Assembly (NCBI GenBank): GCA_000165345.1
Contig: CM000429.1
Span: forward strand, 800,001-864,000
Reading direction: 5' to 3'
DNA length: 64,000 nucleotides
Part shown: positions 32,967 to 34,547 of the stretch, piece by piece
How positions within the stretch are numbered: position 1 is the first letter of the stretch
How the letters are laid out: each line of letters starts with the position of its first letter
Notes under the pieces: generated by a model
Databases searched by the model: none
What the model saw: only the letters and a program-made list of their open reading frames with translations
What the model was told of the DNA's origin: nothing
Program-made: the position numbers and the translations under genes

Positions 32967-34547
32967 ATGTTGTCGGAAAGGACGATAGGGAAGGCATTTA
33001 GGTATGTTGTAGAGCATGTATACCTTTCTACTACATGCCTACATCTGCTAGTTTTGTCTTATGGTCTTCTCCAAGATAGATTCAATGTTTCAGTCAAGTT
33101 TACTGACATTGACTATATGGTAAGTATTATTCTACTACTCAAGTGGGATTGGTATTTTTTTTATTAAAAGTACATTTGAGTTCTCAAGACTCCCACCCCA
33201 CACTTTAATATTTTCTTTGAGCCGAGTTATTCCATATTTAGGTTTTTACGGATGCAGCCAAGGCTGTTCTTCAAGGAAAGTCTCCATATACAAGGCATAC
33301 ATATAGATATACTCCCCTATTGGCATATATTGCCTCAATTAATATCATATTCAAAATGGAAATTCTTTCTAAACTACTATTTTGTGCTGTGAATATACTT
33401 TCAGGTAAAATCCTCGAATGGCTACTTATCTTGTTGGATGTAGACAACGAAACAAAGATTAAAGGAAGCGTTACTTTGAGAAGATTTCTCATTTCCACAT
33501 GGTTACTTAATCCATTTCCTGTTGTAATTGCAGCTAGAGGAAGTGCTGATATTATTCCGTCCATTCTTGTCCTTATCACAATATACTTCTTAATGAAGGC
33601 CAAATATGACAGCTTTAATAACAAAATCAATATTATTATTTCAGCATTCTTCTTTGGTCTTTCCGTTCACTTCAAACTTTATCCTGTTATATATGGCTTT
33701 CCCTTTATCTTCTTTATCAATCCAAACTATCTCAAAAAAGACAGGTCGCTATTCTGGTATATACTCAACCTTCCAATCAAGATATTTACTACTTTGAACA
33801 TAGACCAACTCATTTTTGGATTAGTCAGTTTTTCTACAATTGTTTCATTGATCTCATTCTTCTATTATCTGTATGGTTGGGAATTCCTTTATGAAACTTA
33901 TTTATATCATGCAATCAGAAAAGATCACAGACACAATTTTTCGGTCTTCTTTTATCTTTTTTACCTCACAATGTACTCAGTGAAAGAAGTCCTCGCATCC
34001 AATTTTGTATACAAAGCTCTTCCATATATTGCTTCCATCCCCCAAATGTTTTTGGTTGCATTATCAGGAATTTCTCTTGTGAGAGAAGGTGAATGTATTA
34101 TGGCTATTTTTTGTCAGACTGTCTTATTTGTGGCTTTCAACAAAGTTTGCACATCTCAATACTTCTTATGGTGGTTTATACTATTCCCTCTTGCTCTCAG
34201 AGTATATTTGACTAATAATATTGCTCAACTAGACGAATCTAAAGGGATTATTCACTCAGCAAGTGCATCATTTACCCCGATTCTTATTTCACTAGGAGTC
34301 TGGCTAATTACTAAACTTTCATGGTTATATTTTGCATATAACATAGAAATGCTTGGACAACCATACTTTTTAAGCGTAAGTTTTTAAGGAAACTAATCCT
34401 TTTTATCATTTCTTTTTTAACTAATTCTCAACTTTTTTTTTTTAGCTCTTCCATTCAAGTATACTATTCTTGTTAGCTAATATCAGTATTGTTCTGGTTT
34501 TCTTGAAAAAGAGCAATTCATCGTCACTAAGGGTCAAATCTGAATGA
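32967..34547 (+). CDS. PIGM: GPI mannosyltransferase I (PIG-M/GPI14), three exons join(32967..33119,33242..34375,34446..34547)
   Basis: Exon 1 ends ...LLQDRFNVSVKFTDIDYM|GTAAGT. Exon 2 begins at TAG|GTT TTT ACG GAT GCA GCC, that is [27 protein letters not shown]. Together they reconstitute the PIG-M signature YTDIDYQVFTDAARFV...[10 protein letters not shown]. The ORF track shows only 32967..33167 and 33320..34387 (TTG start). Exon 2 ends ...WLYFAYNIEMLGQPYFLS|GTAAGT, and a TTTTTTTTTAG acceptor at 34445 leads to a hydrophobic C-terminal exon (LFHSSILFLLANISIVLVFL...), stop at 34545-34547. Confidence 0.75.
33120..33241 (+). other. PIG-M intron 1 (122 nt, GTAAGT...TTTAG)
   Basis: The donor lies immediately after the DIDYM codon. 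Homology continues exactly at the acceptor (VFTDAA). Confidence 0.8.
34376..34445 (+). other. PIG-M intron 2 (70 nt, GTAAGT...T10AG), less certain
   Basis: GTAAGTTTTTAA at the end of the ORF. A poly-T/AG acceptor follows, then a 33-codon hydrophobic exon matching the expected last TM helix of PIG-M. Confidence 0.5.

Follow-up and report, generated by a model that had tools for sequence, protein, structure and literature searches.

Introduction

In GPI mannosyltransferase I, a GT-C enzyme of the endoplasmic reticulum membrane, catalysis is carried out by the subunit PIG-M/Gpi14, which in mammals and in yeast works with a partner that stabilises it (PIG-X / Pbn1). Many surface antigens of Cryptosporidium are GPI-anchored. 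Solved chains of the enzyme are available in the PDB, namely 23gx_B, 23gf_B and 9wno_A, the last being GPI mannosyltransferase I of Candida glabrata bound to Dol-P-Man. In Cryptosporidium, the corresponding step of GPI synthesis has been assigned by genomic reconstruction to cgd1_3720, with PIG-V and PIG-B acting thereafter; the same work, which makes no mention of a PIG-X/Pbn1 partner, gives PIG-M as "Atcc_000018/cgd1_3720, 462/382 aa", with two introns in the 462-aa form, and quotes the older Iowa-II model as 382 aa with one intron (PMC9713705, 2022).

Here we describe the PIG-M locus in a 64,000-nucleotide stretch of C. parvum DNA ('the window', to whose numbering all coordinates refer unless another sequence is named). 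With a probability that we put at about 95%, positions 32967-34547 constitute the C. parvum gene for GPI mannosyltransferase I (PIG-M / Gpi14), from which two introns are spliced to yield a product of 462 residues. This three-exon model is an independent rediscovery of the current reference model, and nothing in the gene structure is new: an exact-sequence look-up finds the 462-residue product to be identical to QOY43249.1 (CPATCC_000018), WRK30772.1 and UniRef A0A7S7LJ97.

Results

The gene (cgd1_3720 / CPATCC_000018) lies on the forward strand. Exon 1 (32967-33119; 153 nt, 51 codons) opens with the ATG at 32967, which is preceded four codons upstream by an in-frame TAA, and encodes the peptide MLSERTIG...KFTDIDYM with the first transmembrane helix and the DXD motif (D47-I-D49). 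It is followed by intron 1 (33120-33241; 122 nt, 32% GC, GTAAGT...ATATTTAG, phase 0) and by exon 2 (33242-34375; 1134 nt, 378 codons, VFTDAAK...GQPYFLS), which holds the bulk of the PIG-M domain. Intron 2 (34376-34445; 70 nt, 20% GC, phase 0) runs from GTAAGT to a stretch of eleven T and the acceptor AG, and exon 3 (34446-34547; 102 nt, that is, 33 codons plus the TGA at 34545-34547) encodes LFHSSILFLLANISIVLVFLKKSNSSSLRVKSE up to the stop, comprising the last transmembrane helix and a short basic tail.

All three exon lengths are divisible by three and neither intron length is. Both introns carry stops in the frame of the preceding exon, such that retention of intron 1 would append 15 codons before a stop, and retention of intron 2 just three (VSF). 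When the exons are joined, a single reading frame of 462 codons results, with a coding sequence of 1389 nt and no internal stop. The sequence-only reading from which we started had asserted that the program-made list of open reading frames splits and truncates the gene, and this is indeed the case: the list divides PIG-M into a 66-aa frame (32967-33167) and a 355-aa frame (33320-34387), the latter being a truncated version of exon 2 in the same frame with a TTG at 33320 as its nominal start. Likewise, every coordinate proposed in that reading, from the exon ends to the GTAAGT at 33120 and 34376 and the acceptors, is borne out.

Since the hexamer GTAAGT is no more frequent in the window than expected by chance (27 observed versus 24.1 expected), splice motifs were given no weight as evidence, and the gene model was judged instead by restoration of the frame, homology, orthologous loci and an intron-less contig. 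Both introns are of the spliceosomal GT-AG type (GTAAGT...TAG, phase 0), and their removal gives one frame that is collinear with homologous proteins. A pseudogene, or a set of fragmented frames, is rejected in view of the intact and conserved spliced frame. A search for non-coding RNAs with Rfam at gathering thresholds and with ARAGORN returned none in the whole window.

Direct evidence for splicing comes from a contig of a related species and from a statement in the literature. The best database match to the 462-residue product (P0001; 95% amino acid identity), itself 97% identical to the C. ubiquitum protein over the first 420 residues, is encoded by an uninterrupted reading frame on a Logan contig of 1532 bp (L001; run SRR31831731). 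When this contig is compared with the window, it aligns in three collinear blocks that leave out exactly 33120-33241 and 34376-34445: exon 1 is collinear with its bases 1-171, exon 2 is matched without gaps by bases 171-1304 at 85% nucleotide identity, and the junctions fall at 33119/33242 and 34375/34446, with the bases on either side corresponding one for one. The contig extends beyond the reading frame by just 18 nt on the 5' side and 128 nt on the 3' side. Because the contig represents an mRNA-sized unit only, and because both introns are present in every Cryptosporidium genomic locus examined, we interpret it as a transcript from which the introns have been spliced, and infer that it originates from RNA. 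For C. parvum itself, the authors of the IOWA-ATCC annotation report RNA-seq support for 100% of its introns (PMC8744675).

Comparison within the genus points in the same direction. The C. bovis locus (L003, VHIT02000025.1) has introns of 118 and 82 nt (GTAAGT...TAG) at the same codons, and so does that of C. andersoni (L002, LRBS01000099.1), where introns of 77 nt (GTAGGT...TAG) and 90 nt (GTAAGT...CAG) were read directly off the sequence. The exons of C. parvum and C. bovis are 71-79% identical to each other, the introns about 59%; that is, intron positions are kept across the orthologues while intron sequence and length drift, as is characteristic of introns. Exon 1 is conserved across the genus, as is the peptide encoded by exon 3, including the terminal KSE before the stop in C. 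bovis. The order of the genes around PIG-M is also shared: in C. bovis and C. andersoni as in C. parvum, acetyl-CoA synthetase (-) is followed by PIG-M (+), glucosamine-fructose-6-phosphate aminotransferase (GFAT; -) and an ankyrin-repeat gene (+). In the window, acetyl-CoA synthetase (ACS) occupies 30164-32251 and GFAT 34953-37043, both on the reverse strand and matching EAK88289.1 and EAK88288.1 of C. parvum Iowa II, respectively, exactly. With these matches, the name cgd1_3720 given to PIG-M in PMC9713705 puts the window on chromosome 1 of C. parvum.

The assignment to PIG-M, which had been made earlier from the letters alone, is upheld by the domain match, by alignment to solved structures and by the fold. 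The Pfam family PF05007 (PIG-M) matches the 462-residue product with E = 9.3e-58 and 196.6 bits (cut-off 23.4); profile positions 1-256 of 259 are covered only if exon 3 is included, while the unspliced 355-aa frame reaches 239 of 259. A phmmer search of PDB sequences retrieves the GPI mannosyltransferase 1 chains 23gx_B, 23gf_B and 9wno_A with E-values of 3e-52 to 3e-49, and the spliced product aligns in a single stretch with 23gx_B over residues 31-448 and with 9wno_A over residues 24-450. A collinear PIG-M alignment across the proposed junctions had been set beforehand as a check, and the alignment obtained spans both. There is no gap at junction 1 (M51/V52) in the alignment to the solved chains; at junction 2 (S429/L430), a one-residue gap in the query lies two residues before the junction (yf.ls/LFhsSiLFllaNi versus VFYPGLFIASVLFFVTNV), and exon 3 aligns with LFIASVLFFVTNVWLL, the C-terminus of the solved chain 23gx_B.

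Intron 1 is located within the most conserved block of the protein, two codons past D47-I-D49. In an alignment of 33 sequences of diverse eukaryotic homologues, which also formed the basis of the AlphaFold model described below, invariant residues flank junction 1 on both sides (K44, T46, D47, D49 and Y50 before it, V52 and D55 after it). The DXD motif is found, as expected for the family, in the first lumenal loop after the first transmembrane helix, where it aligns with TDIDY of 23gx_B. The earlier proposal that the intron splits the catalytic signature is hence to be narrowed: the intron does interrupt the conserved block, but the DXD motif itself (D47-I48-D49) is unsplit and lies entirely in exon 1. 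As an aside, 23gf_B differs from 23gx_B within the aligned region solely in this motif (TDIAY versus TDIDY, with the second aspartate changed from D to A), and to judge by this substitution 23gf is probably a catalytically inactive variant.

These alignments bear on the view, suggested by the list of open reading frames, that the gene consists of a single frame whose first codon, within exon 2, is either the TTG at 33320 or that of Met-90 (MEILSK...), and that the 66-aa frame is unrelated. A model of this kind has in fact been deposited for C. hominis TU502 (XP_667117.1; 343 aa, start at Met-90). It would, however, be devoid of the DXD motif and of the invariant block K44...P76, which are encoded upstream, and it is contradicted by the collinear alignment across 33119/33242 as well as by exon 1, which is conserved in the genus and contiguous with exon 2 in L001. 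We consider such a gene exceedingly improbable.

The AlphaFold model of the 462-residue product is all-helical (mean pLDDT 82.4, pTM 0.87), and its best Foldseek match in the PDB is 9wno_A (E = 1.2e-15; TM-score 0.72/0.81), with PIG-U and other GT-C enzymes ranking next. The final helix of the model extends over residues 427-452, exon 3 begins at residue 430, and residues 430-448 represent the most hydrophobic 19-residue segment of the entire protein (Kyte-Doolittle 2.21). The expectation that exon 3 supplies the last transmembrane helix thus agrees with the predicted structure.

It is this helix that would be lost if intron 1 alone were spliced and translation continued into intron 2, ending in ...GQPYFLSVSF after 432 residues. 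Two C. parvum assemblies carry such a two-exon gene in their deposited annotation (KAL5370620.1, WKS76280.1). Equivalent models of 432 aa exist for C. hominis (CUV04327.1) and C. tyzzeri (TRY53363.1), the read-through being judged by length alone in these two, and intron 2 is also read through in the original Iowa II model (EAK88596.1; 420 aa, partial, without a start codon) and in that of C. bovis (P0002, 'hypothetical protein FG379_003647'; 441 aa). Against it stand (i) the last transmembrane helix, which every aligned homologue has and which is seen in the solved structures of GPI mannosyltransferase I, (ii) the genus-wide conservation of the exon 3 peptide described above, (iii) the contig of the related species, which is spliced at exactly the intron 2 site, and (iv) the occurrence of an intron at this position in Plasmodium, Toxoplasma and Vitrella as well. 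We regard the two-exon gene as very improbable, albeit slightly less so than the single-frame gene.

Alternatively, intron 2 might be spliced to a downstream acceptor (AG at 34475-34476), leaving a terminal exon of nine codons (LISVLFWFS and the stop; 34477-34506) and a protein of 438 aa. The window does contain this AG and the required frame, and GenBank holds a C. hominis protein with this wrong acceptor (OLQ16338.1; P0124; 438 aa). The resulting tail is, however, dissimilar to that of every homologue, L001 takes the equivalent of the acceptor preceding 34446, and it is the reading from 34446 that aligns with 23gx_B, Plasmodium, Toxoplasma and Vitrella. The downstream acceptor thus appears as improbable as a start within exon 2. 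The 432-aa, 438-aa and single-frame models are rejected in favour of the three-exon gene because each loses either the last transmembrane helix or the DXD block, against the testimony of L001 and of exon 3 conservation; taken together, they retain only a small share of the probability.

Orthologues of 462 aa have been deposited for C. hominis (PPS97242.1), C. meleagridis and chipmunk genotype I. Comparison of deviating Cryptosporidium models (P0004, P0124, P0127, P0128, P0129) reveals errors of other kinds too: the C. ubiquitum model (457 aa) has a wrong 3' end, the C. felis model (437 aa, partial) a wrong exon 1, and the C. canis model (304 aa) continues as unrelated sequence past about residue 220. 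In C. bovis, splicing of positions 4406-4487 of L003 (GTAAGT...CCTGTAG) yields a protein of 462 aa that ends in LFHSSILFLLANIGIVLVFLKKNHSVHSKIKSE before the stop. The GenBank model for C. andersoni (P0003; L002, 4410-4600) ends in ...LTNTDALFY, apparently by way of an extra terminal splice; plain reading past intron 2 gives IFHSSLFFLLTNVNIVVTFLKYQGNNFYKKLL and the stop, which aligns better with the other species than the end of P0003 does.

Upstream of the gene, two opposed E2F-like sites (TTCCCGCC ... TTTTGGCGG) lie at 32876-32898, 70-90 nt before the ATG of PIG-M, and GGCGGGAA occurs five times in the window versus 0.18 expected. Similar GC-rich sites are found upstream of C. andersoni PIG-M at -87 and -61, and none upstream of C. 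bovis PIG-M. The E2F-like sites possibly represent a promoter element. The intergenic region between ACS and PIG-M (715 bp) also contains a GTAAGT at 32730, a C-rich tract (CTCTCCCCCCCCCTTTCC) that is unusual for a spacer of 28% GC, and, at about 32794, the branch-point-like TACTAATACTAAC. These intron-like features at 32730-32806 could reflect an intron in the 5' untranslated region or chance. An intron at this place was considered and is unsupported: the features have no counterpart in front of PIG-M in C. bovis or C. andersoni, and L001 has a 5' untranslated region of only 18 nt.

Discussion

Taken together, the evidence favours a PIG-M locus that would be transcribed on the forward strand and from whose transcript the spliceosome would remove 33120-33241 and 34376-34445, so that the 1389-nt coding sequence would be translated into a 462-residue multi-pass membrane protein of the endoplasmic reticulum with GT-C fold. 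By homology, this protein would act in GPI-anchor synthesis on the lumenal side of the endoplasmic reticulum, where GlcN-PI would receive its first, alpha-1,4-linked mannose from dolichol-phosphate-mannose, and the DXD motif D47-I-D49 encoded by exon 1 would form the catalytic loop. Both the predicted activity, that of a Dol-P-Man:GlcN-PI alpha-1,4-mannosyltransferase, and its location follow from what is known of the family.

In practical terms, the DXD block or the last transmembrane helix is missing from the deviating public models, so the 462-aa form is the one to use for cloning or modelling. Beyond annotation quality, the matter is of little consequence: the enzyme serves a housekeeping step of GPI anchoring, and the current reference annotation already has the gene structure right.

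The sequence-only reading had also remarked that genes with several introns are uncommon in this genome. This is right insofar as only about 10.8% of C. parvum genes contain introns at all, but those that do have 2.6 exons on average (PMC4637869), so that a gene of three exons is typical among them.

How the two introns compare with those of more distant relatives was assessed by mapping the PIG-M exons in Plasmodium chabaudi, Toxoplasma gondii and Vitrella brassicaformis (L004, L005, L006) and placing the introns on a protein alignment. The gene has 8 exons in P. chabaudi, 9 in T. gondii and 13 in V. brassicaformis. In all three, the last intron falls in the same alignment column and has the same phase (0) as intron 2 of C. 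parvum, and the terminal exons are comparable in length, with 102 nt in C. parvum, 108 nt in both P. chabaudi and T. gondii, and 141 nt in Vitrella. These three taxa share at least five further intron positions, at which Cryptosporidium is intron-less. Intron 2 is thus most simply viewed as an ancestral intron that Cryptosporidium kept.

In contrast, intron 1, which follows DIDYM, occurs in C. parvum, C. bovis and C. andersoni and is absent from P. chabaudi, T. gondii and Vitrella; the closest Vitrella intron differs in phase and is placed 11 columns of the alignment, or 10 residues, further upstream. Given its presence in all three Cryptosporidium lineages examined and in none of the three outgroups, intron 1 may have been gained, in a genome that is otherwise known for having lost introns. 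It is then tempting to speculate that the two introns have different histories, with intron 2 descending from the common ancestor of apicomplexans and chromerids, at least five others having been lost, and intron 1 being a lineage-specific gain, but we advance this scenario tentatively and give it somewhat less than an even chance. Whether intron 1 was gained here or lost elsewhere is, in any case, a minor point of intron evolution.

Among the described systems, the closest is the annotated gene of C. parvum IOWA-ATCC, CPATCC_000018 ('Mannosyltransferase DXD' / GPI mannosyltransferase 1), which represents the same locus as cgd1_3720 and whose product shows no difference from the 462-residue protein considered here. 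With fungal Gpi14 and human PIG-M, members of PF05007 with 23gx_B, 23gf_B and 9wno_A as solved examples, the Cryptosporidium protein shares the DXD block TDIDYxVFxDAA, the multi-pass GT-C fold and the C-terminal transmembrane helix. The Candida glabrata enzyme (9wno_A) is 30% identical to it and collinear over nearly the full length in the Foldseek structural alignment; when compared with 23gx_B, the Cryptosporidium protein is distinguished by two insertions, around residues 115-132 and 370-395.
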